From contig CP011215.1 in assembly GCA_001029775.1 (NCBI GenBank), positions 490,303 through 554,302 on the forward strand: a DNA stretch of 64,000 nt. Reading direction: 5' to 3'. The notes beneath the pieces are model-generated. The model made no database searches, had not been told where the DNA came from, and worked only from the letters and a program-made list of their open reading frames with translations. Source of the DNA: Candidatus Campbellbacteria bacterium GW2011_OD1_34_28. GTDB taxonomy: Bacteria; Patescibacteriota; Minisyncoccia; Phycocordibacterales; UBA12079. A program made the translations under genes and the position numbers. Below, piece by piece: positions 3,534 through 54,505 of this stretch (positions are counted from its first letter, which is position 1; the number at the start of each line of letters is the position of its first letter).

Positions 3534-3674
3534 TTTGTAAGTTTTATTTTAATGACGATATAATATCACATGATAATAAATAGTCACTTTTTAAATATTG
3601 CATTGAAAAAGTTAAGTTTTCTGTTAATATTCTAATTATTAAATATTATGGTCCCGTTTTTTCTAATAACTAAA

Positions 3675-3718
3675 ACCTGCCTGCCGTGTCGTTGCTTTTC
3701 TTTCAGAAAAGAGGCAGG
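3675..3718. repeat. 44-nt exact repeat, copy 1 (hairpin-forming; second copy at 46239..46282)
   Basis: ACCTGCCTGCCGTGTCGTTGCTTTTCTTTCAGAAAAGAGGCAGG identical at both loci; outer CCTGCC/GGCAGG stem and inner CTTTTC/GAAAAG stem. Confidence 0.8.
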
Positions 3719-3741
3719 ACTAATGGCTATAAACTTAATAC

Positions 3742-3813
3742 GGCCCTATCGTCTAACGGTTAGGACATCGCCTTCTCAAGGCGGGAATCAGAGTTCGATT
3801 CTCTGTAGGGTCA
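3742..3813 (+). tRNA. tRNA-Glu (anticodon CTC)
   Basis: hand-folded cloverleaf: acceptor GGCCCTA/TAGGGTC, anticodon loop TTCTCAA, T-loop TTCGATT; no encoded CCA. Confidence 0.85.
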
Positions 3814-3827
3814 CAAATCGCAAAAAA

Positions 3828-3864
3828 GAAACGCCAGTTCGAAAGAACTGGCGTTTCTTTTTTA
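3828..3864 (+). terminator. intrinsic terminator after tRNA-Glu
   Basis: AAACGCCAGTTC-GAAA-GAACTGGCGTTT + TTTTTT. Confidence 0.7.
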
Positions 3865-4028
3865 GAAAAGCAAACTGCTTTGCTTTTCGGCGATTTGTGA
3901 AGCCGGAGGCATAATTTTTCGAGCATCACGAGAAAAATAGCCGAGGCGAGGTCGACAAGTACTTAGATATTTTAGAACCCGAAGGGTTTTTAAATATTTA
4001 GTAACTTGTGACCACACAGATTTAGTCA
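3865..4028 (+). repeat. tRNA 3'-flank structured repeat element (Glu-CTC copy)
   Basis: GCAAACTGCTTTGC hairpin, GATTTGTGA (inverted copy of tRNA 3' end/trailer), core GAAGCCGGAGGC, variable hairpin, ACTTAGATATTTT...AAATATTTAGT hairpin, terminal TTGTGACCACACAGA; very similar to 44340..44565. Confidence 0.6.
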
Positions 4029-4115
4029 GTATTGAATACTTGGAAATACTGTCTATATAGTTTTTGACTCAATGGCTCAACGAGTTGAGCCGTTGATATA
4101 TGATACAATTTTAAA

Positions 4116-4919
4116 ATGATTGGAAAAAATTATTATATTTATGTTCTTGCTTTGTTTGTCTTGGCAACTATTTTTTTATTTGGTTTGAAAGAAGAAAAAA
4201 ATTTTGAAAATATGACAACTATTGAAGAAATTGAAGCTCGTATCTCAGGCATAGGTATAAAAAATGAAAACAGAGGTTTTTGGTGGAATAGTGGGGATGG
4301 CTATAATATTTTTGTTCCTGCTGATGAATCTGTGACAATTATAAAGACGGGAGTAGCTCCTGTTGAAAGAGACCTCGTCGCGAGAAAATATTTTGATGAA
4401 GAAGGTTCTTTGGCTGATTTGGTTCTTATGAATCGTCATTTTATTTTCAATATAGAAAATTCTTCAACCAGTACCTCTGATAAAAAATTTTATGATTATG
4501 TTCAATCTTATGAAAATGGTGATGAAAAATGTTCGGTAATAGTAAATCCTGATTTTATGTCATATCCAAAAATTATTGATATGGGATACAGTATGTCGGT
4601 AGTTTGTGGAAATGATTTTGAAAAAGCGAAAGATGAACAGGCCCCTCTTATTGATTCTCTCGGTTTAAAAAATACGAAAAATGTTGTGATTTTGAAAAAC
4701 AGAATGGGAGATTTTTTGAAAGTTGGAATATCGAGTGTTAGAAGTGGGGGATATGCAATTTTAAAAAAAGAAGGAGAAAATTATCGGGTATTATTTAAGG
4801 GACAAGAGGACCCTTTTTGCAATCTGATTAAAGAAGAAAATATTCCAGAAAATATTTTAAAAAGTTTTGGCATCAACGGTTGTTTTATAGATGGTGCAGA
4901 ACATAAATTTTTTGAGTAA
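4116..4919 (+). CDS. hypothetical membrane-anchored/secreted protein
   Basis: 267 aa; N-terminal hydrophobic helix; no recognisable motif. Confidence 0.45.
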   Translation: MIGKNYYIYVLALFVLATIFLFGLKEEKNFENMTTIEEIEARISGIGIKNENRGFWWNSGDGYNIFVPADESVTIIKTGVAPVERDLVARKYFDEEGSLADLVLMNRHFIFNIENSSTSTSDKKFYDYVQSYENGDEKCSVIVNPDFMSYPKIIDMGYSMSVVCGNDFEKAKDEQAPLIDSLGLKNTKNVVILKNRMGDFLKVGISSVRSGGYAILKKEGENYRVLFKGQEDPFCNLIKEENIPENILKSFGINGCFIDGAEHKFFE

Positions 4920-4962: not shown

Positions 4963-7900
4963 CTAGTCTAGTTTCTTAACACTATCCACAATCAAACTAG
5001 TTTCGCCATTTCGTTTGGAGATTTTTCCTTTTAGAGCGATTGTTGTGTCTTCTAAAATAATATCTTTGAATTGCTCGTATGTTTTTGGAAAGACAACAGT
5101 TTCCATCGTTCCTGTAAAATCAGAAATTCGCACAAATGCCATTTTTGAAGAACCTTTTTTGGTCAAAATTTCTTTTACTTCATCTACAAGTCCCGCCACA
5201 GCAGTTGTTGTCCCTTCGGGAACAGTTTCGGAAATACTTTTTATATTTTTTCCATCTTTCCCCAAAATATTTCTGTATTTATCCAACGGATGTCCCGAGA
5301 TATACAATCCCAACAATTCTTTTTCCCATGCCAATTTTTCTTTCATCTCGGCAGGGTCAGTCTTTTTTAACTTAAGTTGTGGAACATTACTGTCTTCTTG
5401 CATCAATCCAAACAAAGAGTCTTGATCTTTGTGTTGATGAGCTTTCTCTTTGTTGTATGCCAACAAGTCTTCCATGTTTGCAAGAATTTCTCCTCTTTCT
5501 CCAAAATTATCCATCGCTCCGCATTTTGTCAGCGCTTCTAGTGATTTCTTATTCAAATTTCTGTCTTGTATTCTTTCTAGGAAATCAGCGAGCGATTTAA
5601 ACTTTCCATTTTTTGTTCGCTCTTCAATAATCACATTGGCAATTCCTTCGCCAAAATTTTTGATTGTTTGTAATCCAAAACGAATTGCTTCACTTGGAAG
5701 ACCTGTTTCCAAGTCGGTGGTTTCTACAATAGTAAAGTCGGTAAAACTTTCGTTTATGTTAGGAGAAAGAACTGGGATTTTTAGTCTTTTACATTCACCA
5801 ATTATTTCGGCTACTTTTTCTGTGTCTCCCGAGTCCGCCATCAACAAGGCTGTCATATATTCAATAGGGAAGTTTGCCTTCATGTATGAAGTTTCGTAAG
5901 CCACTCGTCCATAACTGGCGGCGTGCGCTTTGTTAAATCCATAAGCGGCAAAGGTTTCAATCTTTGCCCAAAGCTCGTTGATTGTTTTTTCGCTCACACC
6001 GTTTGCTAAACATCCTTTGTAAAATTTTTCTTTTTGTTCTTGCATCAATTCTGGAATCTTCTTTCCGATTGCTTTTCTAAATTTGTCTACTTCCAACCAA
6101 GAATACCCCGCCAATTCAATCGCGGTTAAAAGAATGTCATCTTGATAGGTGATTACTCCAAAAGATTTATCCAAAATCTTTTCTAGCTTTGGATGTAGAT
6201 ATTTTATTTTTCTTGGATCATTTTTTCTCTCAATATACTCTGGGATAAATTCCATCGGACCTGGACGATACAAGGCAACAGCGGCGTTGATGTCGTTGAT
6301 GCTTGATGGTTTCATATCCATAATTACTTTTGTCATACCTCCACCTGACAACTGAAAACATCCAACAGTGTGTCCTTTGGCAAGCATTTCGTAAGTCTTT
6401 TCGTTGTTTAAATCTACATTATCCAAATCAACACTGATACCGCGGAATTTTTTTACCAATTCAACAGAGTTGGAAAGTATAGAAAGATTTTTGATTCCCA
6501 AGATATCAAATTTTGGTAGGTTTACGACACCGTCACGGTCTCCTGTATACATATCGTATTGAGTAATAATCTGTTCATCTTTATCAAACTGAACAGGACT
6601 GTAATCGTCTATACGAGTAGGGGAAATCAGCACACCAGCAGCGTGAGTAGAAATGTGTCTGGCACAACCTTCAATTTTTTTTGCATATTTAATTATCTCT
6701 TGAACATCTTTGTTTTCTTTATGAAGTTTTCTCAGATCTTCTTCCATCTCGAGAGCCCTTTCTATCGTCATTGGGAAACCCTGTGAACCCATCGGGATTA
6801 ATTTTGCTATCTGATCCCCCAATGTATAGGGGTGTCCCAAAGCACGGGTCACATCTCGCACCGCTCCGCGAGCTGCCATCGTACCGAATGTTCCTATCTG
6901 AGCAACCGCTTTTCCACCATATTTGCTCTTTAGATAGGCAATCACATCATCTCTACGAATGTCGGCAATATCCACGTCGATATCAGGAATACCAGGTCTT
7001 TGTGGATTCATAAATCTTTCAAAAGGTAGTTTTAATTCAAGAGGATTTACTTTCGTAATAAAGTTTAAATAAGAGACAAGACTTCCAGCAGCCGAACCTC
7101 TGGTGTTTGTATAAATACCCACACTTCTTGCGTGTTGAATTAAATCTGCCACGATTAAAAAGTAAGACGAGTAGCCTTTGTTTTTGATGATCTCCAATTC
7201 ATATTCAATACGATCAACAAGTTCTTGTGTTTTTTCTAAGCCTCTTTTTTCTATACCTGCATAGGTTTCTTTTTTTAGTTGTGTGTCATAAGTTTCGCCA
7301 TCTGGTATTGCGATGCTGGGAAAGGTCCAAGAGTCTAGGTCCAATTCCAAATAACACATCTTTAATATTTTTTCTATGTTTTCTATTGCATCGGGTGTGT
7401 CCTTAAAATATTCTTCTGCTTGTTTTGGAGTGATAAAAGAAAAATCGTCGTTTTCTCCACCAAAAGATTTTCCTGCCGATGTTTGTACCGACATTAAAAT
7501 GTTTCTTGCTCGACTGTCTTGTTTATCCAGATAATATACATCATGAGAGGCAACTAACGGGATATCCAATTTTTTTCCAAGATTGATTATTTTTTCTTTC
7601 AGTTCAAGAGACCCTTCTATTTCTGGGTGATGGGTGATTTCTAAATAAAAATTTTTAAATCTCTCCTGATACCATTTTGCGATTTCTTCTGCTTTCGTAA
7701 AGTTGTTTACTTTGAGAGCTTGAGAAATTTCTCCACTAAAATGAGGAGAGATACAAATCATTCCGGCGCTGTGATTTTCTATCAGCTCTTTGTCTATTCT
7801 GGGTTTGTAATAAAAACCTTCCAAATTGGATTTTGTTACCAGCTTGATCAAGTTTTTATAACCGCTTTCGTTTTTGGCAAGCATCACGAGACGACTTCTG

Positions 7901-20746: not shown

Positions 20747-20786
20747 CGGCACAAAAACCAGACCTGAAAGCGACAGCTTTCAGGTC
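20747..20786 (+). terminator. intrinsic terminator
   Basis: CCAGACCTGAAAGC...GCTTTCAGGTCTTTGG + TTTTTG. Confidence 0.65.
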
Positions 20787-20790
20787 TTTG

Positions 20791-20966
20791 GTTTTTGTAG
20801 CCAGAGGAGAGGACTTGAACGGCGGAGGCGGTATACAAGACGAGCGAAGCGAGGGCTTGTCGCCGAGCCGCGTCCAGCAGTACTTAGGCTTTCGGAATCC
20901 GTAGCGAAGCGAAGGATGAGCGAAAGACTTAGTAACTGCGGGACAAGTCCTAACTTTTTAGCACAA
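20791..20966 (+). repeat. tRNA 3'-flank structured repeat element (Leu-TAG copy)
   Basis: GAGGAGAGGACTTGAAC (inverted copy of tRNA-Leu 3' end), core GAACGGCGGAGGCGG, hairpin with GAGCGAAGCGAGG, arm GCCGAGCCGCGTCCAGCAGTACTTAGGC ... AGACTTAGTAACTGCGGGAC, degenerate terminal CAAGTCCT. Confidence 0.6.
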
Positions 20967-26644: not shown

Positions 26645-26844
26645 TTGCGGAGGGTACGAGATTCGGCGCCAGTTCTAAATAAAATTTTCGTCCTGCAGAC
26701 TTAATTTTATTAAGAACTCGCTGCCCCCGCTCACTCGTGTTCGTCGCTTCGCTCCTCCATACTCGCTCGGTTCGAATCTCTTCCCCTCGGTGTAACGACA
26801 CAAAACAAAAACAGTGCATTGGTACTGTTTTTGTTTTGGTCGTG
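26645..26844 (-). repeat. tRNA 3'-flank structured repeat element (Ser-GGA copy)
   Basis: minus strand: terminator, GAGGGGAAGAGATTCGAAC (inverted tRNA-Ser 3' end), CGAGCGAG...GGAGCGAAGCGACG core, hairpin GCGAGTTCTTAATAAAATT/AATTTTATTTAGAACTGGCGC, terminal direct repeat CGAATCTCGTACCCTCCGCA. Confidence 0.6.
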
Positions 26845-32709: not shown

Positions 32710-32748
32710 CATTGAAATTTTTTGAAATTTCAATACAATAGTGTATTA

Positions 32749-32992
32749 TCCGCTCGTAGCTCAGCTGGATGAGAAGCGTTGAAGCTTCGAATCCGAGCGA
32801 AGCGAGGTGGAAGAGTATTCCTTTGAAATGTAAGAGTCGGATGCTAATACACTTAGCATGGACTTCAGAGGTTTTACACAAAAGTAAAAGTAGAGATATC
32901 CGCTCGTAGCTCAGCTTCTGCCAAAGGCAGACAGGGTCCGAGCAACAATCATTGAGACAGACAAGTCTGTAAAATCATCATGGATTTAGTAT
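32749..32992 (+). pseudogene. two truncated 5' copies of tRNA-Lys each followed by unrelated structured sequence
   Basis: TCCGCTCGTAGCTCAGCT(GG) occurs at 32749, 32899 and 32991; only the third continues into a full tRNA; copy 1 is followed by CTTCGAATCCGAGCGAAGCGAGG. Confidence 0.55.
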
Positions 32993-33065
32993 CCGCTCGT
33001 AGCTCAGCTGGTAGAGCATCCGACTCTTAATCGGCAGGTCGAAGGTTCGATCCCTTCCGAGCGGA
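32993..33065 (+). tRNA. tRNA-Lys (anticodon CTT)
   Basis: acceptor CCGCTCG/CGAGCGG, D-arm GCTCAGCTGGTAGAGC, anticodon loop CTCTTAA, T-loop TTCGATC. Confidence 0.8.
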
Positions 33066-33447: not shown

Positions 33448-33681
33448 CAAAAAGAAGACCCGCAAGGGTTTTTCTTTTTGTTGGGTCCACGAACAAAGCA
33501 ATCTAAATTGCTTTGTGTAGGACGAGAACGGCGGAGCGGTTTACAATTTTAGTAAAATTTTCCAACAAAGAAAATCTTACTAAAATTGTCGCGAGCCGCG
33601 TCCAGCGATACTTAGACTTTTTGAAACACGAAGTGTTTCAAAAAGACTTAGTAATCGCGGGACAGTCCTCGTGGGCCCGCA
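33448..33681 (+). repeat. tRNA 3'-flank structured repeat element (Trp copy)
   Basis: terminator hairpin, GTAGGACGAGAACGGCGGAGCGG core, variable hairpin, arm GCGAGCCGCGTCCAGCGATACTTAGAC + long hairpin TTTTTGAAACACGAAGTGTTTCAAAAAG + AGACTTAGTAATCGCGGGAC, direct repeat AGTCCTCGTGGGCCCGCA of the tRNA-Trp 3' end. Confidence 0.65.
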
Positions 33682-44339: not shown

Positions 44340-44565
44340 ATTTATAATCTAGAGGATTCTTATTTTGCTTGTTTAGGAATGCTTCGCATACTAAATCTGT
44401 GTGGACACAAATCACTAAATATTTTTTTCGCCCTTTGGGCTCAAAAATATCTAAGTGTTTGTCGTCCTCGGCTCGCGGTTTTTGTCTCTTTGTGAGAGAC
44501 AAAAACATTGCTCCGCCTTCACAAAGCTAAAAAAGCAAAGCAGTTTGCTTTTTCTTAACGCTTTG
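44340..44565 (-). repeat. tRNA 3'-flank structured repeat element (Glu-TTC copy)
   Basis: minus strand: GCAAACTGCTTTGC terminator, CTTTGTGAAGGCGGAGC core, hairpin GTTTTTGTCTCTC/GAGAGACAAAAAC, CGCGAGCCGAGGACGAC...ACTTAGATATTTTTG...AAAAATATTTAGT, terminal TTTGTGTCCACACAGA; close to the Glu-CTC copy. Confidence 0.6.
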
Positions 44566-44637
44566 TGACCCCACAGAGAATTGAACTCTGGTTAACAGAT
44601 TGAAAACCTGCTGTCCTAACCACTAGACGATGGGGCC
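44566..44637 (-). tRNA. tRNA-Glu (anticodon TTC)
   Basis: acceptor GGCCCCA/TGGGGTC, anticodon loop TTTTCAA, T-loop TTCAATT. Confidence 0.8.
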
Positions 44638-53810: not shown

Positions 53811-54056
53811 CAAAATAAAAACAGGTGTAGCGAAAGCTCCGCCTGTTTTTATTTTGTGTTCTCACAGAAAGCAAACTGCTTTGCTTTCGTCAGGAATCGA
53901 ACGGTGGAGCATGTCGCACGCAAGTTATTTTCTCCCACAAAGAGAAAATAACGAGTACGACAGCGAACCGCGTCCAGCGATACTTGGGATTTTTTGAAAC
54001 ACGAAGTGTTTTGAAAAAGACTTAGTAATCGCGGGACGATTCCTGGTGAGAGCACA
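53811..54056 (+). repeat. tRNA 3'-flank structured repeat element (Arg copy; best-preserved)
   Basis: GCAAACTGCTTTGC hairpin; GTGTTCTCAC..TCAGGAATCGAAC = rc of tRNA 3' half; core GAACGGTGGAGC; variable hairpin; CGAACCGCGTCCAGCGATACTTGGG + long hairpin + AGACTTAGTAATCGCGGGAC; terminal direct repeat CGATTCCTGGTGAGAGCACA. Confidence 0.7.
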
Positions 54057-54106: not shown

Positions 54107-54227
54107 GGATCCCGTTAGAGATAGCGAACGCATAGCGGGATAAACAACAGAATCAATTTATTAATATAATTTAAATAGATAGAACGTGTGATTATATAAA
54201 GTTCGCGTCCTATCTCTAACGGGATGG
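54107..54227 (+). promoter_or_regulatory. long-range inverted repeat whose 3' arm ends at the start codon of ORF 54224
   Basis: GGATCCCGTTAGAGATAGCGAACGC ... GTTCGCGTCCTATCTCTAACGGGATGG; at least 16 perfect bp across a ~70-nt loop; ATG at 54224. Confidence 0.45.
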
Positions 54228-54505
54228 AATATTTTGATCCAGAATTACAAAATTTGATGAGGGAAAATCTCAAAGTTGCTAATGAGAACAATGAATTGCT
54301 TCACAAAATTTGGAGAGATGTTCAATATAAGAGATTTCTCAAATTTTTTTATTGGGGAATAATAATTGCCATTACTTTTGGTGCATATTATTATATCCAA
54401 CCAATCATAGATTCAATTTCTGAAAATTATGGTAGTTTGAGAGGAGGACTTGATGTAGGTATCAAAAATTTTCAAAAAATAAATGATTTGATTCCCAAGA
54501 TTTAA
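54224..54505 (+). CDS. small hypothetical membrane protein
   Basis: 93 aa; central TM helix FFYWGIIIAITFGAYYYI. Confidence 0.4.
   Translation: MEYFDPELQNLMRENLKVANENNELLHKIWRDVQYKRFLKFFYWGIIIAITFGAYYYIQPIIDSISENYGSLRGGLDVGIKNFQKINDLIPKI

Follow-up and report, generated by a model that had tools for sequence, protein, structure and literature searches.

The stretch of DNA analysed here, referred to as the window, covers 64 kb of the genome of Candidatus Campbellbacteria bacterium GW2011_OD1_34_28, and 11 tRNA genes were located in it with ARAGORN. Two of these genes, tRNA-Glu(CTC) and tRNA-Glu(TTC), are each followed directly on the 3′ side, and on the strand of the tRNA, by a non-coding element of about 190 nucleotides (nt). 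These elements are designated the CTC copy and the TTC copy, and together the Glu copies. A covariance model (R1) that was built from 27 cores of a wider family, with no Glu copy among them, matches the CTC copy at 3899-4012 on the forward strand (39.4 bits, E 1e-7) and the TTC copy at 44403-44520 on the reverse strand (33.1 bits, E 3.6e-6). In terms of folding stability compared to shuffled sequences, the z-scores were -6.1 for the CTC copy and -7.2 for the TTC copy. The parts of both loci, with the basis of each assignment (MFE, minimum-free-energy fold), are as follows.

3742..3814 (+): tRNA-Glu(CTC), host gene of the CTC copy (ARAGORN; Rfam tRNA, 58.8 bits)
3822..3863 (+): T1, a perfect palindromic hairpin (A-tract, GNRA loop GAAA, T-tract), terminator-like, between the tRNA and the element (sequence)
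3866..3887 (+): hairpin hp1, AAAAGCAAACTGCTTTGCTTTT, common to the TTC copy and the Arg copy (MFE)
3889..3900 (+): 5′ strand of helix P1, GGCGATTTGTGA (sequence, MFE); within it, GCGATTTGTGA is the reverse complement of the tRNA end and trailer TCACAAATCGC at 3811-3821
3899..4012 (+): conserved core of the CTC copy (R1 match)
3902..3947 (+): P2, junction helix and variable hairpin (MFE; compensatory changes)
3950..4013 (+): P3, conserved hairpin (GGTCGACAAGTACTTAG ... TTTAGTAACTTGTGACC) with the TACTT/TTAGTRA motif (MFE; covariation of GGUC/GACC with GGAC/GUCC, and of G.U with A-U)
4005..4025 (+): terminal motif CTTGTGACCACACAGATTTAG, the 3′ strand of P3 and then that of P1 (covariation)
4027..4051 (+): 3′ hairpin CAGTATT...AATACTG (sequence)
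44565..44637 (-): tRNA-Glu(TTC), host gene of the TTC copy (ARAGORN; Rfam)
44529..44554 (-): hp1 of the TTC copy, where there is no separate T1 (sequence, MFE)
44519..44528 (-): 5′ strand of P1, AGCTTTGTGA (sequence, MFE); GCTTTGTGA is the complement of the tRNA end and trailer TCACAAAGC
44403..44520 (-): conserved core of the TTC copy, with P2 at about 44470-44517 and P3 at about 44403-44467 (R1 match; MFE)
44390..44419 (-): terminal motif TTTAGTGATTTGTGTCCACACAGATTTAGT, the 3′ strands of P3 and P1 (covariation)
44379..44389 (-): 3′ mini-hairpin ATGCGAAGCAT with a C-GAA-G triloop (sequence)

Pairwise local alignment of 3865-4028 with the reverse complement of 44392-44556 gave 128 identical positions of 165 (78%) and a score of 136, while shuffled sequences scored 16.8 +/- 2.4 (z about 50). 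Because the score stands so far above the shuffles over 165 columns, the similarity of the Glu copies extends over their whole length and past the hairpins. This bears out an earlier note on this DNA, made from the sequence alone, which had described the two segments as near-twins, and all of the short words that it listed as shared are present in both copies. The limits it gave need adjustment: the twin lies at about 44379-44556 rather than 44340-44565, with 44340-44378 outside it, and the CTC copy lies at about 3822-4051 rather than 3865-4028 once the T1 hairpin after the tRNA and the 3′ hairpin are taken in.

The same note held that the Glu copies are closer to each other than to any other copy. 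This is true within the window, where pairwise alignments with the Trp, Arg, Leu and Ser(GGA) copies were far poorer, but it does not hold in a wider sample. In the comparison of the Glu subtype as a whole, the TTC copy is 69% identical to the CTC copy of the window, and in a neighbour-joining tree it joins tRNA-Glu(CTC) copies of other organisms, to which it is 83% and 78% identical. Thus the Glu subtype does not follow the anticodon. The outer sequence of T1 is kept in this subtype while its inner stem differs between loci, and a small hairpin follows the terminal motif in most loci.

No promoter-like site was found between the tRNA and the element at either Glu copy, and therefore any expression of the element would depend on transcription reading through from the tRNA. 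For the tRNA-Glu(CTC) gene itself, the best promoter-like site was placed about 110 nt 5′ of the gene (window 3603-3741), and this leader holds a hairpin, GCCTGCC...GGCAGG. A filled/empty site comparison for the Glu copies yielded few homologues of the downstream open reading frame (ORF) at 4116-4919, and these were without conserved synteny.

The terminal motif of the Glu copies belongs to the fold of the element itself

The earlier note had interpreted the terminal segment of the Glu copies as a tRNA-derived piece in inverted orientation. To examine the segment across organisms, the Glu-type end TTAGTRAYTTGTGWCCACAYAGATTT was searched in metagenomes, which gave 19 loci, including the window's own (L043 and L040/L046). 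Wherever the adjacent tRNA could be identified it was tRNA-Glu, with either the CTC or the TTC anticodon, and the remaining loci with upstream sequence show a tRNA-Glu 3′ end (..GGGTCAC). One more Glu-type copy came from a genome scan, as the second unit of a tandem array behind tRNA-Arg (L001:4837-4950).

The terminal motif TTGTGWCCACAYAGATTT is invariant in 11 distinct copies of the subtype. The eight distinct tRNA-Glu genes beside these copies differ in the 3′ strand of the T-stem (CTCTG, CCCGG, CTCCG and CCGCG). The motif is therefore not an inverted copy of the adjacent tRNA. Compared without gaps to the reverse complement of the local tRNA-Glu 3′ end, the terminal segment does match at 13 of 18 positions in both window copies, because the T-stem of this organism happens to be CTCTG; in four of the eight tRNA-Glu loci the value falls to 9-11 of 18. 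The last 10 nt match at 2-6 positions over the eight loci, and at 2-4 positions, which is the chance level, in the four weakest. A gap-tolerant score for inverted similarity was dropped as too permissive since shuffled sequences reach 11.5/18, and the ungapped comparison was used.

The segment is accounted for by pairing within the element. Its first 8 nt, TTGTGWCC, are the 3′ strand of the base of P3, in which GACC pairs with GGUC in seven sequences and GUCC pairs with GGAC in four, a compensatory change, and neighbouring pairs alternate between A-U and G.U. The following ACAYAGA is the 3′ strand of P1 and pairs with an invariant UUUGUG, where Y gives either G-C or G.U. In total, 22 of the 41 pairs of the Glu-subtype fold show compensatory change. 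Since W covaries with the 5′ strand of P3 and Y pairs with an invariant G, the motif consists of the 3′ strands of P3 and P1. The apparent inverted tRNA-like end of the Glu copies is thus shown to be conserved stem strands of the element's own fold. In addition, GTGAC(C) closes the core at Gly, Asn, Arg and Pro tRNAs (the GTGAC subfamily), and a standard element with a direct sense arm exists at a tRNA-Glu in Yonathbacteria (L030:1493-1613).

The inverted piece that does derive from the tRNA end lies on the 5′ side of the Glu copies (GCGATTTGTGA in the CTC copy and AGCTTTGTGA in the TTC copy), as in all other members of the family. P1 is short in this subtype: the 5′ strand is the complement of TCAC and the local trailer, and the 3′ strand is the constant CACAYAGAT. 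The 5′ piece follows the trailer in four variants, which are GCGATTTGTGA with TCACAAATCGC, CGCTTTTGTGA with TCACAAAAGCG, ACATTTTGTGA with TCACAAAATGT, and GCTTTGTGA with TCACAAAGC. With respect to arms copied from the T-arm and acceptor, antisense or sense, the Glu copies are at background level. The earlier note was correct that they differ from the Arg, Trp and Ser copies, which carry a direct repeat of the tRNA 3′ end at their distal boundary; neither Glu copy has such a repeat of T-arm and acceptor. The missing arms set the Glu copies apart as a subtype, without excluding them from the family.

Because the presumed flipped tRNA piece belongs to the fold of the element, it says nothing about the orientation of insertion. 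The proposal that the family inserts or recombines either way round also finds no support in the wider sample. A tRNA could be identified for 51 copies, and every one of these follows its tRNA on the 3′ side, shares its strand and has its core oriented like the rest; none is opposite, and both Glu copies conform. In practical terms, the outcome for the Glu copies is a correction: they are a tRNA-Glu-bound subtype.

A structured family at tRNA 3′ ends

When one genome per species was scanned with an exact pattern, 33 loci were detected, all of them in metagenome-assembled genomes (MAGs) of Patescibacteria, also known as CPR: Campbellbacteria, Paceibacterota/Parcubacteria, Yonathbacteria, Woesebacteria and bins labelled 'Saccharibacteria'. 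Model R1 matched the fetched loci 60 times, and a few of these matches are opposite-strand overlaps of the same copies. A tRNA was present within 700 nt for 51 of the 58 copies analysed, and 16 amino-acid specificities were represented. Within the window R1 finds exactly six copies, every one adjoining a tRNA, so that 6 of the 11 tRNAs carry a copy. The four besides the Glu copies are:

20753..20965 (+): copy at tRNA-Leu(TAG), with T1, antisense arm 20800-20820, core 20817-20944 and decayed sense arm 20945-20965 (R1, 96.8 bits)
33449..33681 (+): copy at tRNA-Trp, with core 33526-33663 and an 18-nt direct copy of the tRNA end at 33664-33681 (R1, 97.8 bits)
53812..54056 (+): copy at tRNA-Arg(CCT), with core 53899-54037 (R1, 93.3 bits)
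26646..26843 (-): divergent copy at tRNA-Ser(GGA), with core 26665-26773 (R1, 27.3 bits, E 9e-5)

A unit is 150-250 nt long with a core of about 120 nt, and the typical order is tRNA, T1, antisense arm (AS), GGCGGAG with the variable hairpin P2, CGAGCCGCGTCCAGC with P3, GCGGGAC, and sense arm (S). T1 is a perfect palindromic hairpin made of an A-tract, a stem, often a GNRA loop, and a T-tract. The AS corresponds to the tRNA between T-loop and 3′ end, in reverse complement, and continues into the trailer, and in many variants hp1 splits it exactly at the acceptor/T-stem junction (AG-hp1-CGT). P3 is a conserved irregular hairpin, TACTT...TTAGTAA, with a T.T mismatch, a bulged A and an A.G mismatch. 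The S is a direct copy of the tRNA from C56 to N73-CA, and in most subtypes it pairs with the AS to form P1, which closes a three-way junction of P1, P2 and P3. In the consensus structure 95.3% of cells are paired and 12 pairs have changed on both sides, a result that none of 500 shuffles equalled. Subfamilies can be told by the last bases of the core, GCGGGAC/, CTCGTGAC/C, GGAGGT/C or GGCGCC/ (boundary shown by a slash), and all of them go on with C56-GA(A/T)TC.

The fit of the arms to their own tRNA is far closer than that to other tRNAs (p about 1e-15). In proximal units the tRNA-specific positions are matched at 93% by the AS and at 84% by the S. Two early readings of the arms were given up. 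The boundaries had been taken to reflect a 3-nt staggered cut, but they are ambiguous, because GTTC (positions 53-56) is invariant in tRNAs, and they can be symmetric. The AS had also been considered a copy of the tRNA 5′ strand, as in a degenerate tRNA with an insertion in the T-loop, but it extends into the complement of the discriminator, CCA and trailer (L004). At that locus the tRNA-Phe gene encodes CCA, and its antisense arm contains TGG. Nine of the 11 tRNA genes of the window were inspected and none encodes CCA; all but tRNA-Ser(GGA) run on with N73-C-A and then an A-rich trailer, and it is right after this CA that the direct arm copies end.

Searches of the whole window against Rfam at the gathering score, and of two copies at E<=10, returned only the 11 tRNAs and chance-level hits. 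The Rfam tRNA and tmRNA models and ARAGORN likewise detected only the true tRNAs of the window and none inside the elements. Viral contigs contained no match to two core patterns, and no similar sequence was detected by blastn in the phage and plasmid collections. Full-text literature searches found no description of the family, which does not prove that none exists. The family is apparently an undescribed, CPR-wide set of tRNA-anchored structured elements.

Of 62 cores, 55 have the more stable fold on the tRNA-sense strand and not on the complementary one (mean difference 4.8 kcal/mol, p 7e-9). Among isolated mismatches within helices, A.G/G.A outnumber C.T/T.C by 53 to 2 and G.T outnumber A.C by 12 to 5, and the alignment of the Glu subtype contains many G.U cells and few A.C. 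The occurrence of G.U with almost no A.C, the purine-purine mismatches and the more stable folds of the tRNA-sense strand show that selection works on a single-stranded form of that strand. Whether this form is RNA or DNA is indicated less clearly. The fixed co-orientation with a strongly transcribed gene, the lack of a promoter-like site at the Glu copies and the purine-rich internal loops point to RNA. On the side of DNA, the hairpin tips are mostly C-GNA-G triloops (GAA 25, GTA 10, GCA 6), the C-GNA-G triloop is a motif of unusually stable DNA mini-hairpins of the d(GCGAAGC) type, and the element generally comes after a strong hairpin.

Proposed spread of the family and alternative explanations

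The family differs between related genomes in its occupancy of tRNA genes. The Campbellbacteria contig MFAE01000014 (L016) is syntenic with the window at 32.5-33.7 kb, with genes for tRNA-Cys, tRNA-Leu(TAA), tRNA-Lys, a small ORF and tRNA-Trp. An element is present at the tRNA-Lys of L016, where the spacer from tRNA to ORF is roughly 165 nt longer, while the tRNA-Lys of the window has none (no model match). No target-site duplication (TSD) is seen in this filled/empty comparison, and the proximal hairpin of the filled site resembles the native hairpin of the empty site. The element at the tRNA-Trp of L016 has a P2/P3 variant that differs from that of the window, and in general P3 variants tend to be specific to the genome and not to the tRNA. 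It is common for one tRNA to carry tandem units of different subfamilies, and truncated units and decayed S arms are common as well.

A variant without hp1 is informative with regard to the arms. Its T1 is homologous at Leu, Ile, Arg, Ala and Glu tRNAs in at least five MAGs (72% mean identity), and since the homology spans five tRNA types, T1 is part of the repeated unit. The arms on both sides of T1 match each local tRNA. As one variant of core and T1 thus occurs at five or more tRNA types with locally matching arms, the arms must have been rewritten repeatedly.

Both Glu segments thus belong to a tRNA-Glu-specific subtype of a Patescibacteria-wide family of non-coding elements at tRNA 3′ ends, and on balance we lean towards the reading that the element is selfish, non-autonomous and duplicative and acts as a folded single strand of tRNA sense. 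Such a repeat would spread to and among tRNA 3′ ends, with the local tRNA as the source from which its arms are rewritten; palindrome-directed template switching would be the simplest route. T1 may nucleate a fold-back of the nascent strand, which would copy the 3′ half of the tRNA into the AS up to the point where the universally conserved sequence of the T-loop allows a switch back; the AS would then template the S across the core in the same manner. Arrays could grow by unequal crossing-over between direct copies, and the Glu subtype would represent a lineage that has become fixed at tRNA-Glu genes, with arms that extend over no more than the tRNA terminus and trailer. If this is true, Patescibacteria hold an abundant, undescribed class of tRNA-anchored structured repeats with arms that mirror the adjacent tRNA at 16 or more specificities. 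It raises the question of how an element of 150-250 nt without a gene gains target-matched sequence, and the family bears on tRNA annotation and on the mapping of integration sites in Patescibacteria genomes. A more far-reaching version, which we offer tentatively and with considerable doubt, is that the family retargets itself: the core would move among tRNAs with its arms being rewritten, as an enzyme-unlinked, target-templated form of programmable homing or as genome-wide, bespoke tRNA mimics by which these reduced bacteria control tRNA processing, and the Glu subtype would be a fixed lineage with minimal arms.

Several points weigh against this preferred reading. Mobility is deduced from the distribution of copies alone, and some of the pattern could equally arise from concerted evolution, by gene conversion between cores, combined with unequal crossing-over. 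Template switching offers no obvious account of hp1, whose position inside the AS is exactly at the acceptor/T-stem junction, and leaves the conserved GTAG bulge of the variants without hp1 unexplained. The wide sequence conservation of P3 could reflect a host function. The prevalence of C-GNA-G triloops suits stable DNA mini-hairpins at least as well as RNA, and the strong palindromic hairpin that usually lies between tRNA and element argues against abundant read-through RNA. Two rivals are to be taken seriously, a tRNA-mimic RNA of the host and an att site of folded single-stranded DNA.

It is possible, but in our view unlikely, that the element is instead a host-functional tRNA-mimic RNA, co-transcribed with the tRNA, which acts in tRNA metabolism, for instance by decoying or regulating an enzyme that recognises the acceptor/T helix. 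In such a molecule P1 would be a 12-bp minihelix that reproduces the acceptor and T stems of the tRNA and ends in the same discriminator-CA; hp1 would stand where a tRNA has its D and anticodon arms, and P2/P3 would take the position of the T-loop. Because P1 would reproduce the minihelix, RNase P and the 3′ processing enzymes would excise the element. Selection on the tRNA-sense strand, the G.U pairs and the purine-rich internal loops suit this explanation, as do the constant position and orientation downstream of a strongly transcribed gene with no promoter-like site at the two Glu copies, the exact placement of hp1, and the high conservation of the P3 motif over phylum-level distances. However, only 6 of the 11 window tRNAs carry an element, close relatives differ in its presence, tandem and decayed copies occur, and sense arms are often degenerate. 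Furthermore, the Glu subtype has no acceptor/T mimic at all, and a generic mimic has no need to match the neighbouring tRNA.

An explanation that we regard as quite improbable is that of a mobile element of single-stranded DNA, in which the top strand of tRNA positions 56-76, T1, antisense arm and core would form a rod or dumbbell that is inserted at the T-loop by a recombinase or HUH enzyme of the host or encoded in trans. The stem would be a double-stranded copy of the 3′ end of the tRNA gene (a folded att site like integron attC or CTX-phage attP), and insertion would supply the tRNA with a new 3′ end and terminator. The triloops typical of stable DNA mini-hairpins, the mismatches and bulged A of the conserved hairpin, which resemble targets of single-strand recombinases, and the inclusion of T1 in the repeated unit are all consistent with it. 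So are arrays that read S, T, AS and core, the identical S-T-AS modules that flank a core in L030, and the decay of the distal sense copy, as expected of a displaced tRNA end. On the other hand, the window contains no recombinase or HUH gene, the T-loop GTTCGAA departs from the integron core site GTTRRRY, and the proximal hairpin at tRNA-Lys looks native to the empty site. An element that carries its own tRNA end could not easily change its tRNA, yet the same variant of core and T1 is found at five or more tRNA types.

The view that the Glu terminus is an inverted piece of tRNA-Glu, in a family that inserts either way round, is very improbable: the 13/18 identity of the window copies favours it, and the specificity of the subtype for tRNA-Glu leaves an ancient Glu-derived origin of TTGTGACC possible, but it is opposed by the invariance of the motif beside varying tRNAs, its covariation with its P3 and P1 partners, the chance-level matches in half of the loci, the GTGAC(C) ends at non-Glu tRNAs and the single orientation of all 51 copies. 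Least probable of all is that the elements are attL/attR scars that remained when the island of a tRNA-targeting integrative element or a prophage was lost, for although a direct repeat of the tRNA from T-loop to 3′ end around inserted DNA is the classic mark of tRNA-targeting integrases and flanks the insert in most subtypes, such scars would not preserve a fold or an antisense arm, the same covarying core of about 120 nt recurs at 16 tRNA specificities in many MAGs, the core is absent from viral contigs, phage records and plasmids, and no integrase lies nearby.

A Pfam search of the 56 ORFs of the window found no gene for an integrase, transposase, reverse transcriptase, recombinase or HUH protein. 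The ORFs have housekeeping functions only, including DnaE, a MurC-like protein, RNase HII, NusB, RNase III, IF-2, TsaD, DprA, SerRS, FtsZ/FtsA, RecR and DnaB. A search of the fetched loci for cargo-bearing or autonomous versions, in which a 5′ motif would lie far from its 3′ motif, returned only truncated or fused copies.

The family shares features with several known systems. Like islands and prophages with tRNA-targeting integrases, it resides at tRNA 3′ ends, keeps the tRNA functional and shows tandem occupancy of one tRNA, and in most subtypes a direct repeat from the T-loop to the tRNA end bounds the insert. Unlike them, it is only 150-250 nt long, has no integrase, and includes an extra antisense copy and a covarying three-way-junction core, and the Glu subtype has no direct repeat. 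The short, multi-copy, intergenic, hairpin-forming and non-autonomous character of the family, its lineage-specific variants and its terminator-like hairpins recall miniature inverted-repeat transposable elements (MITEs), REP/BIME, ERIC and Correia repeats, and the PATEs derived from IS200/IS605. In contrast to these small repeats, the family is strictly tRNA-linked and strand-fixed, its 'terminal inverted repeats' copy the neighbouring tRNA, and no TSD, parent insertion sequence, RAYT or TnpA was found for it. Assignment as a MITE was rejected, with arms that vary with the tRNA, no TSD at tRNA-Lys and no transposase among the window ORFs.

Integron attC sites and the attP(+) of CTX phage resemble the family in their two inverted target-like copies that anneal to mimic the target, in the irregular helix and in the arrays of units; the family differs in having no IntI or Xer-type core sequence and no cassette ORF, and its stem copies the tRNA end. 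An attC site (RYYYAAC ... GTTRRRY) was rejected, since the junctions read ...ATTCGAAC / CGAAT... and a C as the fourth base breaks GTTRRRY. The joining of a structured scaffold to copy-specific, target-complementary segments is also known from the bridge or seek RNA of IS110 and the omega RNA of IscB/TnpB. In those systems a recombinase or nuclease gene is adjacent and the target-matching segments are open loops, whereas the family has no such gene and its segments pair with each other. IS110 bridge RNA, omega RNA and retron msr-msd were set aside, as the window holds no gene of these kinds and Rfam gave no meaningful hit (HEARO and others). Finally, P1 of the standard subtype, an acceptor and T-stem minihelix with a discriminator-CA end, is reminiscent of tRNA-like RNAs such as the tmRNA domain, viral tRNA-like structures (TLS), bacterial YrlA and mascRNA-type processing signals. 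The family has P2/P3 in place of the T-loop and copies whichever tRNA adjoins, and the Glu subtype has no mimic; a tRNA-like structure of the tmRNA, TLS or YrlA kind was rejected, as tRNA models detect only the 11 true tRNAs.

Rearranged and related units were observed at several loci. At the tRNA-Val of L030 (6420-6790, reverse strand) a module of tRNA positions 56-76, hairpin and antisense arm is identical on both sides of one core; the second unit has lost its core, GAAC-AGAAAG-GAC being left, and the arrangement looks like a young tandem duplication. At about 4213-4290 of L029 the 5′ parts of two elements are fused head to head at the P2 hairpin (..GGGATTCGAACGGCGGAGCAT..ATGCTCCGCCGTTCGCTTCC..), which is an inverted junction of units from two different tRNAs. 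After the tRNA-Leu(TAA) of L016, at 6086-6485, there are two tandem units of a different element, 'core-B', with the same plan: a palindromic hairpin, GGGAGTCGAAC as the antisense T-arm, a core of two hairpins, and CTCCCGCCCTAGGCACA as the direct copy. This element is absent from the orthologous site of the window, at about 32711-32990.

In the same region of the window, the first 20 nt or so of tRNA-Lys (TATCCGCTCGTAGCTCAGCT) occur three times in direct orientation, at 32747-32766, 32897-32916 and 32990-33011, upstream of and at the real gene, and the first of these units holds TTCGAATCCGAGCGA, which resembles a T-loop and 3′ end. The repeats look like decayed pieces of pseudo-tRNA-Lys or like a 5′-side counterpart of the 3′ elements. 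Immediately 3′ of the Arg element there is a perfect inverted repeat of 16 nt, ATCCCGTTAGAGATAG at 54109-54124 and CTATCTCTAACGGGAT at 54210-54225, with 85 nt between its arms; it extends to the start of the ORF at 54224-54505.

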